This document shows, piece after piece, positions 2,337 to 47,733 of a stretch of 60,636 nt of DNA. Source of the DNA: a virus (Duplodnaviria; Caudoviricetes); the IMG/VR virus record IMGVR_UViG_3300019768_000005, positions 1 to 60,636 of that record; one strand, 5' to 3'. Position 1 is the first letter of the stretch. The number at the start of each line of letters is the position of its first letter. Position numbers and translations under genes: made by a program. A model generated the notes under the pieces. The model had not been told where the DNA came from and searched no databases. It saw only the letters and a program-made list of their open reading frames with translations.

Positions 2337-2603
2337 TTATCTCCCATCCCCGATCCGTTTAATTACGTCATTTGCTTTCTTTAAATCAACCGCCATAAAC
2401 TTTAGCATCTCTGTTTTCTGCAAAGAAACTTTCAATAAGTCTTTATACGCCTGCTCCAAATCTTCCCTGGAAAGGCTTGATACATCAACCGTGGTGTGTT
2501 TAATAATTTTGCCCAACGCCAACCCCCTGGTGAAAATATGTTGTTTCGTGATGGAACATGATATTTTTGTCTGTGTATTTTGCGCCACTTCTGTTTTTTG
2601 CAA
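2337..2603 (-). CDS. Hypothetical coiled-coil protein (true start probably ~2516)
   Basis: ORF overlapping the dnaB 3' end. Confidence 0.5.
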   Translation of the reverse strand: MQKTEVAQNTQTKISCSITKQHIFTRGLALGKIIKHTTVDVSSLSREDLEQAYKDLLKVSLQKTEMLKFMAVDLKKANDVIKRIGDGR

Positions 2604-4860
2604 GATCTATAATTGCCATACCCTTCAACCCCTCTTTTTCCTCCTCAGAATCAGCATATTCTTCTGGCCTATGGATAAAAATTACAGCGTCTGCATCCTC
2701 TTCGATTTTACCTGATTGCTTTAAATCAGACAGTATCGGTCTTTTGTTACTCCTGGCCTTTAAATCCCGGTTTAGTTGTGCAAGCAAAACAATCGGTATT
2801 CCAAGTTCTTTTTTTAAAGATGATAGTCTTGTCGTATTTTCGGAATAACGAGTGGTTAAATCACTGCTGTTTACCTCCCGGTTACCGATCTGTGACAATT
2901 GATCAATAAAAAGTATCTCAGCACCTTTGTTTTTCATTCTGCGGCCTTTTCGCTCAACGTCTGATATATCCACCCCTCCCATGGAATCAATTTGGATATT
3001 GCTATTGTAATATACGCCTGCTGCATCATTCACCATTTGGTATTCTTGCATGTTAAGGCCTTTATACTGCCCGAATTTGGATGCGGTTACAGTTGATTCC
3101 ATGGACAATAATCTATCAATCATCTCAAATTCTGGCATTTCGATAGAGATTAACCCGGCATGAACGCCTGCCCGGTCAAGATTTTTTATCGCTGTCAATG
3201 CAAAAGATGTATTGTGCGTCACGGTAAAATCACCCAATAAGAACAAACCGTCACCGTCAAGCTCAAACCCGTAATAATCACCCTTGCCGATAGGAGAAAC
3301 ATTAACACCAGTGACTAAAACGTCTTTAATTTGCCTTCTCTCTCTTGCTACTTTTCTACCTAACTTGCACGGAATTTCACATGTCTGCCCTGAAATCAAA
3401 ATACGGTAGTATTTCTTTTTCTCAGTCCATCCTTGCGCCTTCTTAAATGACTCATTCAAGCTAACAAAGAAGCCCAATGACCTGGCAATAAAGGTTATGT
3501 CCTCTGCTAACTGTTTACTTTTTTGGATAATCTCATATGAATTTTTGTCTAAATGACCATCAGTGTCAATTATGCCAGCAAGCAAATCAACCCTGTCCAA
3601 AGCAGGCGCCGTTTTATATTTTTGAGGAATAAATAGGCATTTATCAAGGCCCAGCTTTCTTATTTTTTCAAGAAACGCATTTGGTTTTCCACCTGTCCGC
3701 CCGCTTGTTAGAAAATATGTCGGGCACCTTGTTCCGTTACTGTCTTGCTTTCTTATCCCAAGCCCTATTGATTTCCCGTATTCAACCCATGCGTTCTTTA
3801 TTTCTTCATCAGGGGTCGTAATCCCACCATGGTTAGAACTGTGGTTACCATCACCAAGCCATAATCCAAGTTCATATGGTGGAATTTCAAACACACTGTT
3901 TTTTTCATCAAAGACAACGCCAGTTTTCCAACCTTTTGCCTTTTCTTTGAATTTTTTATTAGACGCAAGGTACTCGTCAATAGAAATGTTTATTGTACTG
4001 CCGCCACGGAACCCATAAACATTGTGTTTTCCTGAAATCTTTAATGACAATATATGATCTTTATTAACAATATAATTATCACCTTTTTTTTGGTCCACGA
4101 GATATAAATCATCATATCCTTTAGCTGTCGACTGGACTGTCTTTGGCATGCTATCCGGACCCATAAGTTTATCTCCTGGCACAACGTCTTGAACCATTTT
4201 AACTGAACCATCGTACATGATGACAGGAGTGTCTAATCCAAGGCACTTTCCGGCACCAGGTCTTCCGGCCACAACTATCAACTTAGGTCCCTTTGTTTTA
4301 AGCCGTTTATCCAGGCCAGGGAATCCAAACCGAAGGAAGTTCTCAACTTGTGTTGTATTCGCAGCGTCGATACGTTCCATGTGTTCTTGAATTATGTCTC
4401 TAACATTTCGGATATCGTCTTCATGGCCAGACCCAGTAATTGCCAAAACTCCTTTCTGCGCATCGCTCAATATGTCATTCCCAAGTTTGTCAGAATGTAG
4501 GATTTCAGAGCAAACTTTTTTTATTTGCCTGGTTATTGAGCATTCCTTAATAATGTCCATGTATTGATTGATTTTAAAAAGAGGCGAATTATCAAGGATT
4601 TTAAGCATATCCATTTCTGTTAACGAACCGCCATCAGGAAAATCCTTTTTTGTTTGGTGACAAAAAGTAACAACATCAACAGGGTCTTTCCTTGAAAGCA
4701 TGTTCAGGATCGTTTTAAATGCGTTTCCGTGGCGTTTTGAATAAAAGTCATCCGGTTGTACTCGCATTTGATCAAAGAGGCTGTTTTGGGTAACTATGGA
4801 GCCTATAAGACTACATTCCGCGTCAATGTCATGGGCTGGGAGATCGTTGTTAAAATCCAT
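2500..4860 (-). CDS. dnaB: Replicative DnaB-like helicase containing an intein
   Basis: DnaB N-domain (AECSLIG..DFY..H); Walker A GRPGAGK/T split by an insert; IEM, IDQL, LAQLNR, LSDLKQSGKIEEDAD, AKNRSG. Confidence 0.95.
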   Translation of the reverse strand: MDFNNDLPAHDIDAECSLIGSIVTQNSLFDQMRVQPDDFYSKRHGNAFKTILNMLSRKDPVDVVTFCHQTKKDFPDGGSLTEMDMLKILDNSPLFKINQYMDIIKECSITRQIKKVCSEILHSDKLGNDILSDAQKGVLAITGSGHEDDIRNVRDIIQEHMERIDAANTTQVENFLRFGFPGLDKRLKTKGPKLIVVAGRPGAGKCLGLDTPVIMYDGSVKMVQDVVPGDKLMGPDSMPKTVQSTAKGYDDLYLVDQKKGDNYIVNKDHILSLKISGKHNVYGFRGGSTINISIDEYLASNKKFKEKAKGWKTGVVFDEKNSVFEIPPYELGLWLGDGNHSSNHGGITTPDEEIKNAWVEYGKSIGLGIRKQDSNGTRCPTYFLTSGRTGGKPNAFLEKIRKLGLDKCLFIPQKYKTAPALDRVDLLAGIIDTDGHLDKNSYEIIQKSKQLAEDITFIARSLGFFVSLNESFKKAQGWTEKKKYYRILISGQTCEIPCKLGRKVARERRQIKDVLVTGVNVSPIGKGDYYGFELDGDGLFLLGDFTVTHNTSFALTAIKNLDRAGVHAGLISIEMPEFEMIDRLLSMESTVTASKFGQYKGLNMQEYQMVNDAAGVYYNSNIQIDSMGGVDISDVERKGRRMKNKGAEILFIDQLSQIGNREVNSSDLTTRYSENTTRLSSLKKELGIPIVLLAQLNRDLKARSNKRPILSDLKQSGKIEEDADAVIFIHRPEEYADSEEEKEGLKGMAIIDLAKNRSGAKYTDKNIMFHHETTYFHQGVGVGQNY
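3211..4245 (-). mobile_element. Intein with LAGLIDADG homing endonuclease (345 aa) in the DnaB P-loop
   Basis: Starts CLGLDTPVIMYDG, ends FTVTHN followed by Thr; block B NKDHILSL; LGLWLGDG and LAGIIDTDG motifs. Confidence 0.93.
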
Positions 4861-6367: not shown

Positions 6368-6435
6368 TTATATACCACGACAAAAAATATATTGCAAGAG
6401 AATAACCGGCTGCCGAAACAGCCGGGTTGTTTGTT
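6368..6435 (-). promoter_or_regulatory. Terminator + promoter cassette, copy 1
   Basis: Hairpin CCGGCTG..CAGCCGG, then TTGCAA-17-TATATA; near-identical to 7457-7524. Confidence 0.75.
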
Positions 6436-6443
6436 ATGTGTTG

Positions 6444-7256
6444 TTAAATATGAAAAGGAACAATACCGTCCCAATCGTAAGATAAAACGCCATTTGGATG
6501 ATATATTAATTCGAAGGCCTGGTCATTATTTAAAATACTTATTGGCTCTGTGACGCCATGTGAGGTATGCACGGTTATCCCACGGATAAACCTGGTGTGC
6601 ATGCGTCAAACATATCCTGAAGACTCTTTGTTTATTATGCTATACCCTGATAGCTCCTTGTCAGTTGTAAGGTCATATATTTGGTCTGGGCTGCTTATCT
6701 CTCTAAACTTAACAGCGTATGCGTCTATGTCCCGGCACCAATCAATCATGGAATCTATGTCAAGGCCCTTAGTTACAACACAGTTTATAGTTACTGGTAT
6801 TCCGCACTTATGTGCCTTTAGAATAAAAGCTTTCATCTGTCTTGTAGTTTTAAACCCAGAATTAGTGTTTAATATACGACTATTACCAATAACATATGGT
6901 TTGTGCCTTGAAACATTTATAAAATCAACCATTCTGTCATTTATAATTTCATCAAGATCGAGTATCCCGAATCCATTGGTTGTTAAAACTACCTTTTCAA
7001 ATCGGTCTCTTAATATCCTTGCTGCTTTTGTTAAGTTTAAAATATCAAGAGTTGGCTCCCCTCCTGTGATACTCACCTGTTTGAATTTCTCAGGCAACCC
7101 ACCAACGACAAATTTAAGTTTTTCAAGCCAGGCTGATTTATCAAGTTCGGTATTCTGGTCATATTTATAAAAACAGAAATCACAAGAGGCATTGCACCCT
7201 CCTGGCATAATCACGCTGAAATTTGGATCATCTACTATAAAGTTTCTCATCATCAT
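6444..7256 (-). CDS. Radical SAM enzyme with in-frame TGA (6606-6608); candidate selenoprotein
   Basis: CxxxCxxC (CNASCDFC), TGGEP, TTNG; frame stays open 53 codons past the TGA to TAA at 6444, next to the terminator. Confidence 0.8.
6567..6602 (-). promoter_or_regulatory. Bacterial SECIS-like hairpin immediately 3' of the UGA
   Basis: mRNA UGA-CGC-AUGCAC-ACCA-GGU(U)UAUCC-GUG-GGAUAACC-GUGCAU: 6-bp lower stem, upper stem with a bulged U, loop starting GU 22 nt after the UGA. Confidence 0.6.
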
Positions 7257-7426
7257 TCCCCTCTCTGAATAGCAACAACATGTTTTTTGACAGTAGGCCA
7301 TGTAAACCCAAGCGCCCTTGCGCAGTCTGCAATATTCCTTTCCGGGTTTAGCTCAAACCATTTCTTTATTCTTGCCCTGTTTTTTTTGGCGTAAATAATA
7401 CCGCCCGTACCGCGTCCGTTTTTCAT
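7253..7426 (-). CDS. Small HTH protein (paralog 2 of 3)
   Basis: Hand translation ..KNRARIKKWFELNPERNIADCARALGFTWPTVKKHVVAIQRGE; GGAGG RBS; similar to 11991..12173. Confidence 0.8.
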   Translation of the reverse strand: MKNGRGTGGIIYAKKNRARIKKWFELNPERNIADCARALGFTWPTVKKHVVAIQRGE

Positions 7427-7456: not shown

Positions 7457-7524
7457 TTATATACCACGACAAAAAATATATTGCAAGAGAAAAACCGGCT
7501 GCCGAAACAACCGGGTTGTTTGTT
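7457..7524 (-). promoter_or_regulatory. Terminator + promoter cassette, copy 2
   Basis: TTATATACCACGACAAAAAATATATTGCAAGAGAA identical to copy 1, followed by the same hairpin. Confidence 0.75.
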
Positions 7525-7530
7525 TAAGAG

Positions 7531-8397
7531 TTAAACAGCAATGTCGAATTTAATTTTTGGGTGGTGCTGATATCCATGCAAAACAGTATCAGTGTACTCC
7601 CAATCAAAAATTGACGTGAAATTAGGTGTTTTTATGTTTGGAAGGTCTTTCGGCAATCTTTCAAGTTGATCTTTAATTCCATGTATGTGGTTTTTGTAAA
7701 TATGGGTGTCTCCAAGGAAGCCGATTAGCTTTCCTGGTTTAAATCCTGATTCCATGGCCAGGAGCGTTAGTAGAAGGCCGTAACTTGCAATGTTGAATGG
7801 CAGCCCCAGGGCAACGTCAACGGATCTCATGTTCCACATGAGATTGAGTCGCCCATTTATTACCGTGACCTGGAATGCATAATGGCATGGTGGGATGGCC
7901 ATGCGATAGAGTTGTTGTGGATTCCAAGCAGATACTATCATCCTACGGTCATCTGGATTGGTTTTAAGCGTGGCTACCAGGTTTTTAAGCTGATCCACAC
8001 CAGCATAAAATGGATCCTCGTCCCAACCCCGATATTCACTTCCGAAAAAACGCCACATAAACCCATAAATAGGTCCAAGATCACGTTCGGCCCTCATCCA
8101 TTTTTTTGTTTTTTCATCATTCTCGTAGGCAACCTTAGCGGGTGAGCACCAGTCATCCCAGATATGATTGTTTCTGTCCTGCAGCCACTTTTTATCCGTT
8201 ATGCCTTTGATGAAGAATTCCAATTCTGAGGAAACGAGTCTGAATGGAACATATTTACTGGTAAGCAATGGGAACCCCTCGGCCATGTCATGTTCAAACA
8301 TCGCCCCGGCAATGGCAATGGTGTTTACTCCGGTACGGTTTTCTTTGATTTGGCCCTGGTTAAGGACCTTCCTGGCTATTTGCTTATATGCTATCAT
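7531..8397 (-). CDS. thyA: Thymidylate synthase
   Basis: RTG, FPLLTSK, LGPIYG, PPCH catalytic motif, RSVD, GLPFNIASY, GDTHIY. Confidence 0.97.
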   Translation of the reverse strand: MIAYKQIARKVLNQGQIKENRTGVNTIAIAGAMFEHDMAEGFPLLTSKYVPFRLVSSELEFFIKGITDKKWLQDRNNHIWDDWCSPAKVAYENDEKTKKWMRAERDLGPIYGFMWRFFGSEYRGWDEDPFYAGVDQLKNLVATLKTNPDDRRMIVSAWNPQQLYRMAIPPCHYAFQVTVINGRLNLMWNMRSVDVALGLPFNIASYGLLLTLLAMESGFKPGKLIGFLGDTHIYKNHIHGIKDQLERLPKDLPNIKTPNFTSIFDWEYTDTVLHGYQHHPKIKFDIAV

Positions 8398-8412
8398 TCT
8401 CAATCTCCTTTT

Positions 8413-8640
8413 CTATTTTTTAATCAACCAAGCCTTTGGCCGTTTCGTGGGTGTTACGAACTCAACTGGTACGATAAGCTGCATACCGGCTAAACGTGTT
8501 TCTAACGTCGATACGTGTTCTTCCAGGGTGTGGATTTTTTCCATGGCAGCGATTTGCCTATCATCGAAATCTGACAATAGGTAAAAAGTGCAAGCAGTAT
8601 TAAATAATAAAAATATTATTAATAGCCTGTGTGGTGTCAT
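8413..8640 (-). CDS. Membrane-anchored coiled-coil hypothetical protein
   Basis: Hydrophobic N-terminal helix followed by coiled coil; start probably MTPHR. Confidence 0.55.
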   Translation of the reverse strand: MTPHRLLIIFLLFNTACTFYLLSDFDDRQIAAMEKIHTLEEHVSTLETRLAGMQLIVPVEFVTPTKRPKAWLIKK

Positions 8641-8933
8641 TATTCTTCCCACGTCCGCTTTATTGTGTCCAAAACAGCTTGGGCGTTTTCTTTTGTTTTT
8701 TTTAGTGTCCATGTTAAATATGCACTACCTTCTTCTTCGCAATATGTAACACCTTCTCCCCATTTTACTGGGCAATATTCGCAGCTTCCAGCTTCAAGAC
8801 AAGCATGACAAAAATAATGGGATATCACCTCATTACATAATTCACTGTGAACCTCCGCCCACTCTTCTTTATCGGATTCGTTGTCTACAATCCACTGCCA
8901 CATATCGATGCATTTTTGCTTGTTTGATTTCAT
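8640..8933 (-). CDS. Cys/Trp-rich hypothetical protein (paralog of 17182..17484)
   Basis: Shares QKCI.MWQWIVDNESDKE.W, CHACLEA and TKENA.AVLD. Confidence 0.75.
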   Translation of the reverse strand: MKSNKQKCIDMWQWIVDNESDKEEWAEVHSELCNEVISHYFCHACLEAGSCEYCPVKWGEGVTYCEEEGSAYLTWTLKKTKENAQAVLDTIKRTWEE

Positions 8934-8989
8934 TATTCCTCCTTTTGTTACCCGTGGCCATATAGACCACGGCTGTTGGTTGTTTCAGC

Positions 8990-9337
8990 CTATCCCATAG
9001 ACCATTTAATTAAATCTTGCTTGTTGGTAAACACAGGTATCCCTAACGAGCCAGCCTCTTTTATTTCAGCTAATGTTCCTGCGGAATCCTGCCACCCGGG
9101 TACAAGGAACACCGCATCTGATGCTTTGAGCCACTCTATTGAATATTTATAAAATTGCTCAATAGTGAAGTCTGCCTCTGGATTATCAATAATAAAAGAC
9201 GCATCGCTCCACGGGCAAAACGGATGAAACCCGATCTGGAATAGTTTGGCGCACATTTTCCTTCCAACTCCAATGTTTTTTAAAACGTCAATTACATTTC
9301 CAGCCGAATATGGTCCTGCTACGTAGATTCTTTTCAT
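8990..9337 (-). CDS. Nucleoside 2-deoxyribosyltransferase-like (DUF4406/DUF1937-type) protein
   Basis: IYVAGPYS, DAVFLVPGWQDSAGTLAEI..A..LGIPV. Confidence 0.8.
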   Translation of the reverse strand: MKRIYVAGPYSAGNVIDVLKNIGVGRKMCAKLFQIGFHPFCPWSDASFIIDNPEADFTIEQFYKYSIEWLKASDAVFLVPGWQDSAGTLAEIKEAGSLGIPVFTNKQDLIKWSMG

Positions 9338-11994
9338 TTTATAGATGCCTCTTCGATAAAGTCAAAAAGAGACTTTTGATTTTGATTTCTCTCAAATGCT
9401 TCAAGGTATTTTACACCATCTTTAAAATATTCATGGTTTAGCTCACTCGCCATACCATATCTACCCATTTTAATGGCCATGTATGGGACCGTCATTATAC
9501 CGCCAAAAGGGTCAAATACGACATCTCCCTTGTTGCTGTATCTGTTAATTATTCTTTTAACAATATCCATCTGCAACGGGCAGATATGGTTGTTTTGGTT
9601 GCGTTTTGTTTGGCTTGTGTTTAATGTCAACATTCTATTTATGTCAGTCCAAACAGATGGGTCTTCGCTTTCAGGGGCGATACTCATAAATGTCGATGGA
9701 AGTTTCCCATGGTCGTCAACAACTTCACCGATCTTTATGTGTTCGTCATAATCATATATTTTTTCACGGCTGTATTTTTTAAATTCAGACACAAAATCAA
9801 GCGTGTTTAATTGCGTCATTTCATCTTGGCACAACAATCTATCTCCTGACGATTTCCAAAAAGCATGAGCGTCAACCTGCCACCGAGCGCGTGAATATTC
9901 TGTGTCTTTTTTAAAGTGGTGATATTCACCGCATTCATTACATAGCCACTTCCGTTCTTCTTCTTGACCATATAAAAGTGGCTCTTCGTTAAGATCTTCT
10001 GTTTTTATATCTTCGCATTTTTTGGGCACATGACCACAACTTGGGCATGCATGTTTTATTTTTTTTTGTTTTGATATAGGCTCATCTGCATATCCCTTAG
10101 TCCTGTCGGTTTGTGGTTTCCGAAATATCAGGATGTATTCCGGAGACCCTACACCCATTTTAGACCCATCTTTGCATTGCTCAGACCATCCAAGCCTATA
10201 TGTTTGATTGTTTTCCCTTACTACATCTGTAACAACTGTGATCATTCCGAGATAGTCAAACCCATGTTGCATCCCATGGAAAATGCATTCAGCGTGAAAT
10301 GGTGATACTGTCGGAGCACCCTTGCCTGTTACATTCCCGAAAAGGATTCTATCTTTTACGTGGCAGGCATATATCCTACCTGGTTTTAAAATCCTCACCA
10401 ACTCTGGAGTTAAATAATCCATCTGTTTCCAAAAATGGCCATTCGATGAAGTAAACCCAAAATCGTTATAAGATGGTGTATATTCGTAATGGTTCGCAAA
10501 TGGAATCGATGTATGTATAAGGCCAACAGACTCACTTCCTATTCGTCTTGTTTCGTCAACACAATCATTGTTAATGACACTGAAATTTTCACCTGAAACC
10601 TCATTCCTGTCAATGCCTATAGTTCTTTGCATGTCTTTAATGCGCGATGCGTTAGATAAGCCATATTTTTTAATAATATCTGTCATTTTATCAACCATTA
10701 CATCGTGTCTTTGCCACTTCTTTTTAAGCACTTCCAGGATACCTATTTCAGACGATGCGTAAATTATGTGGATGTGACACTCAGCAGTTTGTAAAAACCT
10801 GTAAATACGGTGGACAGCCTGGATGAAATCATTAAACTTAAATCCTATCCCAAGAAAAATAGAGTTATGGCAATATCTCTGGAAATTGCACCCTGATCCT
10901 GACAATATAGGTTTTGTTGCCAGGTGTTGAAATTTCCCGTTTGAAAAATCAATGATGCGCTGTTCACGAGTGTCCAAATCTTGTGAACCATAGACATCTT
11001 TCACAGTAGGAAGTGCTTTTTTTATAGCATGGCGCTCTATTTCTTGATCATGCCAGATAATAAAATGGTCTTCTGGATCTGCATTGATAATCTCGGCCAT
11101 TTTCTCGATACGATTATCAAGGGAATTACGTTTCTCCATGCTGGCAGCCTGCAAAGACATTGCAGCATCACCAAACATTAGAGTTTGACCATCCCTCTTA
11201 TCTATCCGTTCGATATCCCCTGATGCTACCTCATGATAATGGACATGCAATTTAGGTAAAATGTAACCATCATCAGGATATCCCAAATCAGATGGCTTTT
11301 GCAAAAAGATGGCCCACGATGAAACCCACAACCAGAACCGCTTTTCCATGTGCGGGTGGATTTGCAAATTATTTGCTTTTGTTGAATCTCGTTTAAAAAA
11401 CCTTGTGAGAGCCTGCCCTGTATCCATAACACCCAAGAAACCTGCATAGTGGATCAATTCTTTGTATCTGTTTGGAGATGGTGTGGCTGTAGCAACAAAA
11501 CGATATTTAACGCTTTTGAAAGCAGTCAAGAACGTCTGAAACGTCTTAGATCCATATGATCTCAAAACGCTGGCTTCATCCAGGCAAACTCCGTTGAATT
11601 GGTTTACATCCAAACGGAAATCTCTAACAGATTCATAATTTGTAATATAAATCCCTGGGCCGGATATTTCTTCTGTGCGCCGAATAAAAGTTATTTTAAT
11701 ACCAAGCTTTTCAGCGTCAATCTTAAATTCTTGCCTTACTCCCAAAGGTGCTATTATTAATTGATTACCGTGTTCTCGTTTGCCGATTATGCGCAATATT
11801 TCAAGCTGCATAAACGATTTTCCGAGCCCGAATGAAGCGAATATTGCACGGCAACCTCCGAGCAGCGACCATGACACAATATCCTTTTGATGAGGTTTTA
11901 ACAGTTGGTTTATTTCGTCTTGATTGATTTCAAACCCTGTTGAAATAGACACGTCTATTTTGTTTTCAAGAAACTTTTGATATTCCACGATCAT
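9334..11994 (-). CDS. SNF2-type helicase / DNA methyltransferase (N4C/N6A, beta class) fusion
   Basis: GLGKS Walker A, TNYE, LDEAS, TATP, QAVHRIYRF; MTase motifs TSIPF and VFDPFGG; start MIVEYQKF. Confidence 0.88.
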   Translation of the reverse strand: MIVEYQKFLENKIDVSISTGFEINQDEINQLLKPHQKDIVSWSLLGGCRAIFASFGLGKSFMQLEILRIIGKREHGNQLIIAPLGVRQEFKIDAEKLGIKITFIRRTEEISGPGIYITNYESVRDFRLDVNQFNGVCLDEASVLRSYGSKTFQTFLTAFKSVKYRFVATATPSPNRYKELIHYAGFLGVMDTGQALTRFFKRDSTKANNLQIHPHMEKRFWLWVSSWAIFLQKPSDLGYPDDGYILPKLHVHYHEVASGDIERIDKRDGQTLMFGDAAMSLQAASMEKRNSLDNRIEKMAEIINADPEDHFIIWHDQEIERHAIKKALPTVKDVYGSQDLDTREQRIIDFSNGKFQHLATKPILSGSGCNFQRYCHNSIFLGIGFKFNDFIQAVHRIYRFLQTAECHIHIIYASSEIGILEVLKKKWQRHDVMVDKMTDIIKKYGLSNASRIKDMQRTIGIDRNEVSGENFSVINNDCVDETRRIGSESVGLIHTSIPFANHYEYTPSYNDFGFTSSNGHFWKQMDYLTPELVRILKPGRIYACHVKDRILFGNVTGKGAPTVSPFHAECIFHGMQHGFDYLGMITVVTDVVRENNQTYRLGWSEQCKDGSKMGVGSPEYILIFRKPQTDRTKGYADEPISKQKKIKHACPSCGHVPKKCEDIKTEDLNEEPLLYGQEEERKWLCNECGEYHHFKKDTEYSRARWQVDAHAFWKSSGDRLLCQDEMTQLNTLDFVSEFKKYSREKIYDYDEHIKIGEVVDDHGKLPSTFMSIAPESEDPSVWTDINRMLTLNTSQTKRNQNNHICPLQMDIVKRIINRYSNKGDVVFDPFGGIMTVPYMAIKMGRYGMASELNHEYFKDGVKYLEAFERNQNQKSLFDFIEEASIK

Positions 11995-12173
11995 TCCCCT
12001 TTTTGTATAGAAACAACATGTTTTTTTACTGTTTGCCAAGCCAAGTTCAAAGCCCTTGAACAATCAGTAACTGTTCTGCCTGGGTTTGATAAAAACCATC
12101 GTTTAACCCGCTCTCTATTCCGATTTGAAACTTCGCGCATTCCGCTTGTTTTATCGCTTTTAACGTCTATCAT
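11991..12173 (-). CDS. Small HTH protein (paralog 3 of 3)
   Basis: NRERVKRWFLSNPGRTVTDCSRALNLAWQTVKKHV. Confidence 0.8.
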   Translation of the reverse strand: MIDVKSDKTSGMREVSNRNRERVKRWFLSNPGRTVTDCSRALNLAWQTVKKHVVSIQKGE

Positions 12174-25543: not shown

Positions 25544-26437
25544 TTATTTTGCCTTTGCCTTAACGGCTTTTGCTGCCGCTTCTGGCTCTGGTTCCAGGAC
25601 AGGCTCCGGGCAAGCGCCGCATGTTCCACCAGCATTTAAAATGCCTGGGCAGGCGTTACGGCTTACGTTGATCGTGTTATCATTGAGGCACATGTCGATT
25701 TTTGTTCCCGGTTCGTCTCCGCAGCATCGTTCGTCGCAACCTCCGCATACAGCGCCTTGCGCTTTCATCGTTGATACGCAGCTTTTCGGAACTTCAATCG
25801 TCTGGTCCTCATAACACATGATCACTTCTTCACCGGTTTGGCCAGGGCAGTGGTCAGTTCAGGAGGGGCAAGGAGTAGAACATCCAGTAACACAACCACA
25901 TGCAATGCGTGTTTCAAGGGCAGTAATCATTGCGTTTTTCTCGCCGATCTCTTTGTTAGCATCGAGCTTGGCATCAATCGCGGATAGTCTGGCCTGGACT
26001 GAGCCGTTATCAACTGCCTGTTGTTTTGAAAGTTCGGCAAATTTTTCAATTGTTAAGATTTTTGCGTCACAGCAACACTTATCTGCAACTCTGGCGTTAT
26101 TTGCGATTTCACGCTCGATATCTCTCAGCCGGTCACCGTTTCTAAGTTCAGCCTGAAACTGACCGTCTTTGATTGAATCGAACCGAAGGATGTTTCTTGT
26201 TTCGGAATTCTGGTCGCTGATGCGGTCAAGGTTTGCACCAAGACCAGCCTCAAGGCAACGAGTCTCTGCTTTTGTTACTTCATTGTTGCGATTGATTCTA
26301 ACAGCGTTTGATCCCATATCGGCGAAAGGGGAACCATAGTAACCACCACCCCACTGACCGCCGCCACGACCACCAAAACCACCACCGCTCATTGCTGCTG
26401 TAAGTACCGCATCGCTTGTGCTAAAGCCATTATCCAT
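25544..26437 (-). CDS. Gly-rich/coiled-coil/Cys-rich protein, 297 aa if the TGA at 25859-25861 is read through; candidate selenoprotein (CxxU)
   Basis: ORFs 25859..26437 and 25544..25825 share a frame, linked by TGA plus 11 sense codons; CPS*TDHC aligns with the repeat CGGCDERC. Confidence 0.7.
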
Positions 26438-46929: not shown

Positions 46930-47733
46930 TCACCCAACAATCGCAACCGTATAGAACAGATCCATAAAGGTATCTTCGTACCAGTGCGGCTGTGTTTCCC
47001 GTGGGTTGCTCGGACTTGTGTCGTTCTGGCCGTATTTCAGGCCGTATTCTGTGATCGAATTGTACTTCTTGATCTGGCCCTTGTACCCGGTCCTTGTTTT
47101 GACTTCCAGGATTCCATTCCCAATCAAAAGTCTATTAAAAACCCGAGCGCTGATCCCACACTCATTCTTTTTAAGCAGATCCGTGGCCGAGAACGTTGCC
47201 CTTACATTCTCTACGTATTCGGGCAGCATGGCGGTAGACACTCAAATTTCACAATGCAACTTTTTAGCGCACCCAAGATATGACACATCGCTCATTTTTA
47301 AATGGTTCTTTAAGTGGCCCAGGGCAACATACCCAATATCAAGCTGCTCTTTTTTGTCTGATGGGATTGGCAAAGATTTGGCCTGTTTTTCCATGAGAAG
47401 GAAATAATCTCTGGCCTCATTCCCACGGGCTGTTTGCTCAGCCATTGAAACTTTCTTCGCCGTGTCTTGGGTCAAGGCATAGTCTTTTCGGTTATGCCCT
47501 CCGCGACCTGTTTGCTTGACAGAATTATCAAGCAAAATAAAGTCCTGGTTTTCTTGAAAAAATGGATTCTCAATCACCTTTAACTTTACCCAGTTTGCAA
47601 ATTCCTGCTTACTACCAAGGAAAGAATGCAGCTCCCTGGCATCAACAGAATTGACAGACTCTTCCCCGATAGTCGCTGATTTGATTTTTACTTGATTTGA
47701 AATTGATGTTGTGGTATTACTTTGGATAGTCAT
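46930..47733 (-). CDS. AntA/AntB antirepressor split by an in-frame TGA (47242-47244)
   Basis: VDARELHSFL..GGHNRKDY N-domain; abutting same-frame ORF supplies the antirepressor C-domain (SATDLL..FNRLL..ETQPHWY). Confidence 0.8.

Follow-up and report, generated by a model that had tools for sequence, protein, structure and literature searches.

A phage radical SAM gene with an in-frame UGA and a SECIS-like hairpin: a candidate phage-encoded selenoprotein

The selenocysteine insertion sequence (SECIS) of Escherichia coli, as described in PMC8659212, has an upper stem-loop of 17 nt that lies 11 nt from the UGA, with a bulged U17 and an apical loop carrying G23-U24, and it is U17 and G23 that contact SelB. 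Viral selenoproteins are represented, in the account given by a 2021 review of recoding, by two poxviruses only and by no phage example; these are the glutathione peroxidase (GPx) selenoproteins of the molluscum contagiosum and fowlpox viruses, the SECIS of the latter being located within the coding region (PMC8310308). The words “phage” and “virus” are both absent from the main text of the 2026 BSepDB paper (PMC13326102). Our search of titles and abstracts recovered no report of a phage selenoprotein, although a related family might be included in the supplementary tables of BSepDB and deep-Sep. Here, we describe a candidate for such a protein in a stretch of DNA of 60,636 nt (hereafter the window), corresponding to positions 1 to 60,636 of the IMG/VR virus record IMGVR_UViG_3300019768_000005. 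The gene in question encodes a radical S-adenosylmethionine (SAM) enzyme, and its reading frame is interrupted by a TGA at positions 6608..6606, directly followed by a hairpin resembling a bacterial SECIS.

The gene and all the elements associated with it are located on the minus strand. The complete read-through frame (7256..6444) consists of 216 codons, the TGA, 53 sense codons and a TAA. Codons 1-216 (6609..7256, MMMRNF...ESSGYV) encode the radical SAM core, with the CX3CX2C motif in the form CNASCDFC. The product matches the Pfam domain PF04055 (Radical_SAM) over residues 16-175 with 53.8 bits for a cut-off of 29.5, and the presence of the motif together with a PF04055 score above the gathering cut-off assigns it to the radical SAM superfamily. 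The three cysteines of the motif (C21, C25, and C28) are invariant in the family alignments. The TGA (6606..6608) is codon 217 and represents the proposed selenocysteine (Sec) codon; it is aligned with the second Cys of a CPVC motif in homologous proteins. The 53 sense codons located 3' of the TGA (6447..6605), an R codon and then MHTRFIRGITVH...VPFHI, encode the remainder of a C-terminal beta-sheet domain, and the translation of the frame places its true end at the TAA in 6444..6446. A terminator-like hairpin with 8 pairs and a U-rich tail (6406..6425) is present 18 nt past this TAA. Since the terminator is found 3' of the TAA and not 3' of the TGA, the transcript is expected to span the entire read-through frame. 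The original prediction, that the open reading frame (ORF) seemingly stops at ESSGYV-TGA and runs on for 53 codons up to a TAA close to a terminator, is thus borne out by the sequence.

From the sequence evidence presented below, we consider it probable, at about 0.65, that the UGA at 6608..6606 is decoded as selenocysteine by the machinery of the host, producing a single radical SAM enzyme of 270 residues. The host would be a selenocysteine user, which the original prediction expected to be probably anaerobic, and the hairpin directly 3' of the UGA would act as a bacterial-type SECIS during infection. Host SelB loaded with Sec-tRNA(Sec) would bind the apical stem-loop, with its bulged U and G-U loop, and bring Sec to the UGA, after which translation would proceed over the 53 codons and complete the C-terminal beta-sheet domain. 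Sec would take the place of the most conserved Cys of this domain, the second of CPVC, the first one being already replaced by Gly. We infer here the binding of SelB to the hairpin, the presence of SelA, SelB, SelC, and SelD in the host, the incorporation of selenium in the product and the activity of the enzyme. In the phage genome itself, no tRNA was detected by the tRNA scan, no Rfam match to tRNA-Sec was obtained and no SelA, SelB or SelD was found, as had been claimed for the Sel genes from the start, so that the host would have to supply everything needed for Sec decoding. The identity of the portal protein to the portals of siphophages of Proteobacteria is only ~34%.

The search performed with the read-through protein yielded 85 proteins at E <= 0.001. 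The distant relatives (29-37% identity, ~250-470 aa) cover 93-98% of the read-through protein and hence extend across the stop. The query was aligned with P0002-P0085 and 19 locus translations, some of these rows possibly being redundant, and of the 103 rows other than the query (104 in total), 84 have Cys in the column of the TGA, 10 have Tyr, 2 have Ser, and 7 have a gap. The usual first criterion of the field, as given in PMC1976440, is at least 2 Cys homologs and >50% TGA/Cys pairs, and the 84/103 observed here exceeds both values. A Cys aligned with the UGA in homologs extending across it was precisely what the original prediction called for. The column corresponds to the second Cys of the CPVC motif, and C217 is conserved at 90% or more in the 73-row alignment A3. 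The full-length homologs also share a conserved motif of the C-terminal domain, YELxxHxxGxLTxDW. The first Cys of the CPVC pair is Gly in the phage protein and Gln in one relative. In a distant subgroup from large gut-phage contigs of IMG/VR (L014-L039), SHWCR replaces CPVCR and only the Cys aligned with the TGA is kept. This subgroup lacking the first Cys and retaining the second, the TGA occupies the residue that the family can least spare.

The situation is different for the five closest relatives (P0002-P0006; 44-64% identity, 213-216 aa), whose protein sequences all end at the column preceding the TGA. Two of them are encoded on contigs of 10 and 23 kb, so that this shared end is not due to contig ends. 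Using the 52-residue downstream piece as query, we recovered with HMMER P0086 (50 aa, 68%), P0087 (58 aa, 61%), and P0089 (45 aa, 50%), and a word-indexed search, in which only 2 candidates were scored, added P0098 (58 aa, 78%). P0086 is located on a Logan contig of 1617 bp and the contig of P0004 has the same size of 1617 bp; the two ORFs are thus very probably neighbours. These four other contigs retain the downstream piece at 50-78%, a conservation that is not lower than that of the upstream part. Such retention indicates that it is under purifying selection, which excludes a recent pseudogene. Other sources of close-relative loci (IMG/VR, JGI metagenomes, and GTDB genomes) gave nothing or Cys forms at <= 39% identity, and tblastn against GenBank phages gave distant matches only.

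The core of the SECIS-like hairpin (6567..6602) is formed by a lower stem, AUGCAC (6602..6597) paired with GUGCAU (6572..6567), a 4-nt internal loop on the 5' side and an upper stem-loop, GGUUUAUCC-GUG-GGAUAACC, of 20 nt (6592..6573) that starts 13 nt past the UGA. The U at 6589 or 6588 is bulged, and the apical loop, G-U-G (6583..6581), begins 22 nt past the UGA. This core is embedded in an extended stem-loop (6551..6608) with the UGA itself in the base (UGACGC pairs with GCGUCA) and a minimum free energy of -19.7 kcal/mol for 59 nt. A stable stem-loop with a G in the apical loop is therefore present directly 3' of the UGA, with the bulged U and the G-U loop of the E. coli type. Sequence and fold both agree with the earlier description of the hairpin (AUGCAC/GUGCAU, a bulged U and a GU loop 22 nt downstream).

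The stability of this structure is unusual for the window. The 42 nt past the TGA fold at -12.9 kcal/mol, which ranks 36th among the 2339 TGA trinucleotides of both strands, above 98.5% of them, and many of the higher-ranked sites are terminators. When the peptide was kept fixed, only 20 of 5000 synonymous recodings drawn with the codon usage of the phage were as stable (0.4%), and 113 of 5000 with uniform codons. That so few recodings reach this stability indicates that the synonymous sites favour structure. The corresponding stretch of 26 distinct Cys-form loci folds at -5.05 kcal/mol on average and at -10.1 kcal/mol at best, and none of the 26 reaches -12.9. The claim of a SECIS-like element is strengthened by these three comparisons (rank, recodings, and Cys-form loci) and by a shape which is that of the E. 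coli element as presented in PMC8659212. A loose pattern of the E. coli type (bulged U, G-U loop, 8-16 nt from the TGA) was found at 17 of the 2339 TGA sites and, when 8 stem pairs were required, at 3 sites, 6608..6606 among them, but the pattern was devised after the hairpin was known and is thus generous to the selenocysteine hypothesis. Among the four peptides of the TGA clade, identity is 75-94% over the 16 residues whose codons make up the hairpin region and 57-71% over the next 28, a contrast that lacks independent samples since the four peptides share ancestry. In Cys-form pairs that have diverged to a similar extent, it is this segment that is less conserved (0.31-0.36), the reverse being observed in only 1-2% of pairs. 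The conservation of these 16 codons fits an RNA constraint that would be overlaid on the coding sequence.

The late design of the pattern and the common ancestry of the four peptides both weigh against the decoding of the UGA as selenocysteine, and so do several other observations. The z-scores obtained with shuffled sequences are modest, -1.81 for 59 nt (11 of 200 shuffles being as stable) and -1.21 for 68 nt. No Rfam family was recovered at the gathering score in the whole window, and nothing relevant at E <= 10 around the site. The relatives of the TGA clade were compared as proteins only, so that a TGA stop, a continuous frame and a covarying hairpin are, for them, predictions. With Gly or, in one relative, Gln in place of the first Cys of the CxxC, the protein lacks the typical CxxU redox pair, and the clade may simply have dispensed with both Cys. 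The phage also offers no second Sec site, since the other candidate, discussed below, fails. Finally, an ATG is present two codons past the TGA, within the lower stem (6602..6600), and could serve as a restart codon; P0086, P0087, and P0098 begin with M at this position, where the Cys forms mostly have T, S or V.

These last observations are best considered together with the possibility of a conserved split gene, which we regard as unlikely, though it is the main rival of Sec decoding. Translation would stop at the UGA, releasing the 216-residue core, and restart at the ATG located 3 nt downstream, producing a 52-residue peptide that docks on the core; the CxxC pair would have been given up in the clade, and the hairpin would hide the ATG, making it usable by terminating ribosomes only. 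Besides the ATG and the shared M, the loss of the first Cys of the pair is consistent with such a split; the phage often couples genes through overlapping or abutting stops and starts, and another of its genes is split by a TGA and an immediate GTG, at 47242. Nevertheless, the break would coincide with the residue of the domain that is conserved best, with a stop one base change away from Cys, and it would cut inside a beta-sheet, strand 207-213 staying with the core and the next one starting at the TGA position. There is no Shine-Dalgarno at a useful spacing, the sole AGGA being 12 nt upstream of the ATG, and P0089 starts eight codons later, so that not all the downstream ORFs use the +2 start. 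Ascertainment accounts for part of the shared M, because small ORFs are called only if a start codon exists, and this M belongs to a segment which is 75-94% conserved anyway. A split gene would have no need for the selection of structure at synonymous sites, for a bulge and loop geometry of the SelB type, or for the conservation of 16 codons. The interpretation given in the original prediction, a selenocysteine-containing radical SAM enzyme, is supported by the alignment with Cys and by the TGA in the contigs, but it did not consider a restart at the nearby ATG. Both outcomes could also occur at the same site, with Sec insertion when selenium and SelB are available in the host and, otherwise, termination followed by restart at the ATG 3 nt downstream. 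The terminating ribosome would have already melted the hairpin, and the restart would yield a Sec-less enzyme in two pieces. Such a site with two modes would account for the maintenance of both the SECIS-like hairpin and the +2 start codon, and the phage clade would then possess a selenium-sensing recoding switch with a built-in fallback, but we find it quite improbable.

The other explanations that we considered dispense with both Sec and restart. Programmed or leaky read-through of the UGA by a near-cognate tRNA (Trp, Cys or Arg), with a minor full-length product comparable to the Q-beta coat extension, seems very unlikely to us. The UGA is followed by C, and UGA-C is the leakiest stop context in E. 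coli; the conservation of the downstream frame is also in line with it. However, the position of the conserved Cys would mostly receive Trp, little product would be made, and a hairpin with features of the SelB type would be left unexplained. Gene decay, i.e., a nonsense mutation at the Cys codon with the downstream frame persisting as a remnant, is hardly plausible. Such a change (TGC/TGT to TGA) involves a single base, and further candidate in-frame stops, within accessory genes, have been listed for the phage before (two of these TGAs were looked at here). Against decay, the same end column is found in five relatives with identities as low as 44%, the downstream piece is no less conserved than the upstream part in four other contigs, and 53 codons have remained open in a genome with 40% G+C. 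As for a sequencing or assembly error, or a use of TGA as a sense codon throughout the phage (code 4 or code 25), nothing speaks for it except the presence of the in-frame TGA itself, and we give it almost no credit. The TGA is covered with 0 differences by Logan contigs of runs X4 (record 8, 6601-6754) and X5 (record 12, 6520-6813), as well as by those of run X1, a possible source run; the runs covering it are microbial-mat metagenomes of one year, possibly from one campaign. The contigs of X4 and X5 also answer the earlier concern that TGC or TGT might be found in place of the TGA, and we rejected an assembly error on the basis of this agreement across runs. A genome-wide recoding of TGA was rejected because of the stop usage and coding density observed under code 11: in a greedy set of 100 ORFs, the stops are TAA in 60 cases, TGA in 24, and TAG in 16, with a coding density of 0.894. 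Many of the TGA stops sit in stop-start overlaps of the ATGA type, and the phage has no suppressor tRNA. TGA, which ends 24 of the 100 ORFs, is thus an ordinary stop in this phage, and the one at 6608..6606 is a local exception.

We examined the likely structure of the read-through protein. The AlphaFold2 model based on A3 is a single compact body, with a predicted local distance difference test (pLDDT) of 95.1 and a predicted TM-score (pTM) of 0.92. In this model, strand 217-224 begins at the TGA position, just past strand 207-213 of the C-terminal sheet. The best structural match of the model in the PDB is MoaA (1tv7, TMq 0.65 over 286 columns), with further matches to viperin-like enzymes (TMq ~0.56), SkfB, and BlsE. 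Matches of sequence profiles (PDB and NCBIfam) are confined to the core, ending around residue 178, the best ones being of the MoaA and viperin types. In NCBIfam, however, neither cut-off is approached (MoaA TIGR02666, 49.8 for a cut-off of 284.05; viperin NF038283, 45 for 180); TrsS NF045646 scores 19.2 for 490, and ArsS TIGR04167 and NF040546 give no match at E <= 0.01. The likeness of the modelled protein to MoaA and viperin is thus at the fold level only. Combined with the nucleotide-related genes of the neighbourhood, such a fold makes a nucleotide or DNA-related substrate at most a reasonable guess.

Two features of the wider family can be mentioned here. Many of the Cys forms (L002-L053 / P0007-P0071) have a long C-terminal tail rich in Gly, Ser, and Cys that ends with CGxxxC; this tail, which is absent from the TGA clade and from some short homologs, could provide extra cluster ligands or a tethered substrate. 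A G+C-rich homolog (L012 / L049) could be aligned over residues 8-139 only, after which in-frame stops are present, and it may be frameshifted or truncated.

The 60.6-kb record is a tailed-phage genome of microbial-mat origin, in which we found the terminase, the portal, the major head and head-morphogenesis proteins, with a CheckV completeness of 100% and a G+C content of 40%. Immediately upstream of the radical SAM gene, a small helix-turn-helix (HTH) gene (7426..7253, minus strand) has a TGA stop that overlaps the first ATG (7256). The unit formed by these two genes is flanked by near-identical cassettes at 6368-6435 and 7457-7524, each combining a terminator (6425..6406 and 7514..7495, respectively) and a promoter. 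A Logan contig of 1114 bp self-closes across the cassette repeat, and a T/A variant is present at 6403, in the cassette region, in three runs. The genes directly upstream of the unit, at 7531-12063 on the minus strand, include a thymidylate synthase (PF00303, 302 bits), a nucleoside 2-deoxyribosyltransferase-like/DUF4406 protein and a 909-aa fusion of SNF2 and DNA methylase; this region is a nucleotide and DNA-modification neighbourhood. Further away (2500-4860, minus strand), a replicative-helicase-like ORF of 786 aa contains a long insert which, judged from the translation only, is intein-like.

We also looked at two other in-frame TGAs of the phage. The one at 25861..25859 (within 25544-26437, minus strand), previously put forward as a second CxxU candidate, did not survive as a Sec site, since homologs end there and the downstream fold is ordinary. 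All 50 homologs (164-227 aa) cover <= 65% of the read-through product, and the C-termini that we inspected end at the TGA or within three residues of it (CPS*, CPSRS*, CPSAS*, CPPPQ*, and CPPCGG*). The downstream fold is no better than that of shuffled sequences (z +0.34). This TGA is thus a natural stop, and the Cys-rich repeats encoded past it belong to a separate gene. The upstream protein belongs to a Gly-rich/CCC family without Pfam domain that is widely distributed among phage contigs and is also found in Shewanella phage 1/44. The other TGA (47244..47242) interrupts an antirepressor-like gene (46930-47733, minus strand) and has a GTG directly after it, which suggests a plain split or a coupled pair.

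If selenocysteine is indeed inserted at 6608..6606, the novelty would lie in the carrier, a phage clade, and in the protein family, whereas the mechanism would be the known bacterial one. Phages would then exploit the Sec machinery of their hosts by evolving a SECIS inside a coding region. The gene would also mark the host as a Sec user, which would aid host prediction for uncultured phages. Gene callers would shorten a whole clade of enzymes, splitting each of them into two “genes.” In addition, the Cys/Sec position in the C-terminal domain would point to a key residue of a large family of phage radical SAM proteins.

Comparison with described systems brings out what this locus shares with each of them. 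The Cys-form family (CPVC...YELxxHxxGxLTxDW; L002-L053, P0007-P0071), whose genes are mostly phage-borne according to the IMG/VR and metagenome loci, shares the domain order of the phage protein, with 29-37% identity over 93-98% of the latter, but it has TGC or TGT at the position of interest, no comparable hairpin and, in many members, the CGxxxC tail. MoaA (GTP 3',8-cyclase) and viperin-like enzymes provide the best structural matches to the model and the best profile matches to the core; they differ by scores far under the cut-offs, by a sequence homology that ends around residue 178 and by the three-Cys auxiliary motif of MoaA, which is absent from the phage protein. ArsS (TIGR04167), TrsS (NF045646), and the CUAEP/CCAEP-tail proteins (NF040546; Haft 2022 preprint, 10.1101/2022.07.06.499078) are, like the candidate described here, radical SAM proteins with Sec in the C-terminal part, outside the CX3CX2C motif, and gene callers truncate them at the UGA as well. 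The phage protein is not a member of these families according to the NCBIfam scores. Its predicted Sec stands alone (GxxU) within a beta-hairpin and is 53 residues away from the C-terminus, instead of forming a C-U dipeptide in a short tail. The poxvirus GPx proteins are also encoded by viral selenoprotein genes relying on the Sec machinery of the host, as predicted here, but these are genes of eukaryotic viruses, captured from a cellular GPx and using the eukaryotic SECIS/SBP2 system. With respect to the E. coli fdhF type, the differences are a phage carrier without its own machinery, an upper stem-loop located 13 nt instead of 11 nt from the UGA, its length of 20 nt with a 3-nt loop for 17 nt in the E. 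coli element, and a SelB binding that is here only predicted. Both have a UGA at the Cys position of the homologs and, just past it, a stem-loop whose base includes this UGA, with a U bulging from the 5' strand and a G-U apical loop. The spacing between the bulge and the G of the loop is likewise the same, 6 nt, from nt 20 to nt 26 in the centroid fold of the phage hairpin and from U17 to G23 in the E. coli element as numbered in PMC8659212.

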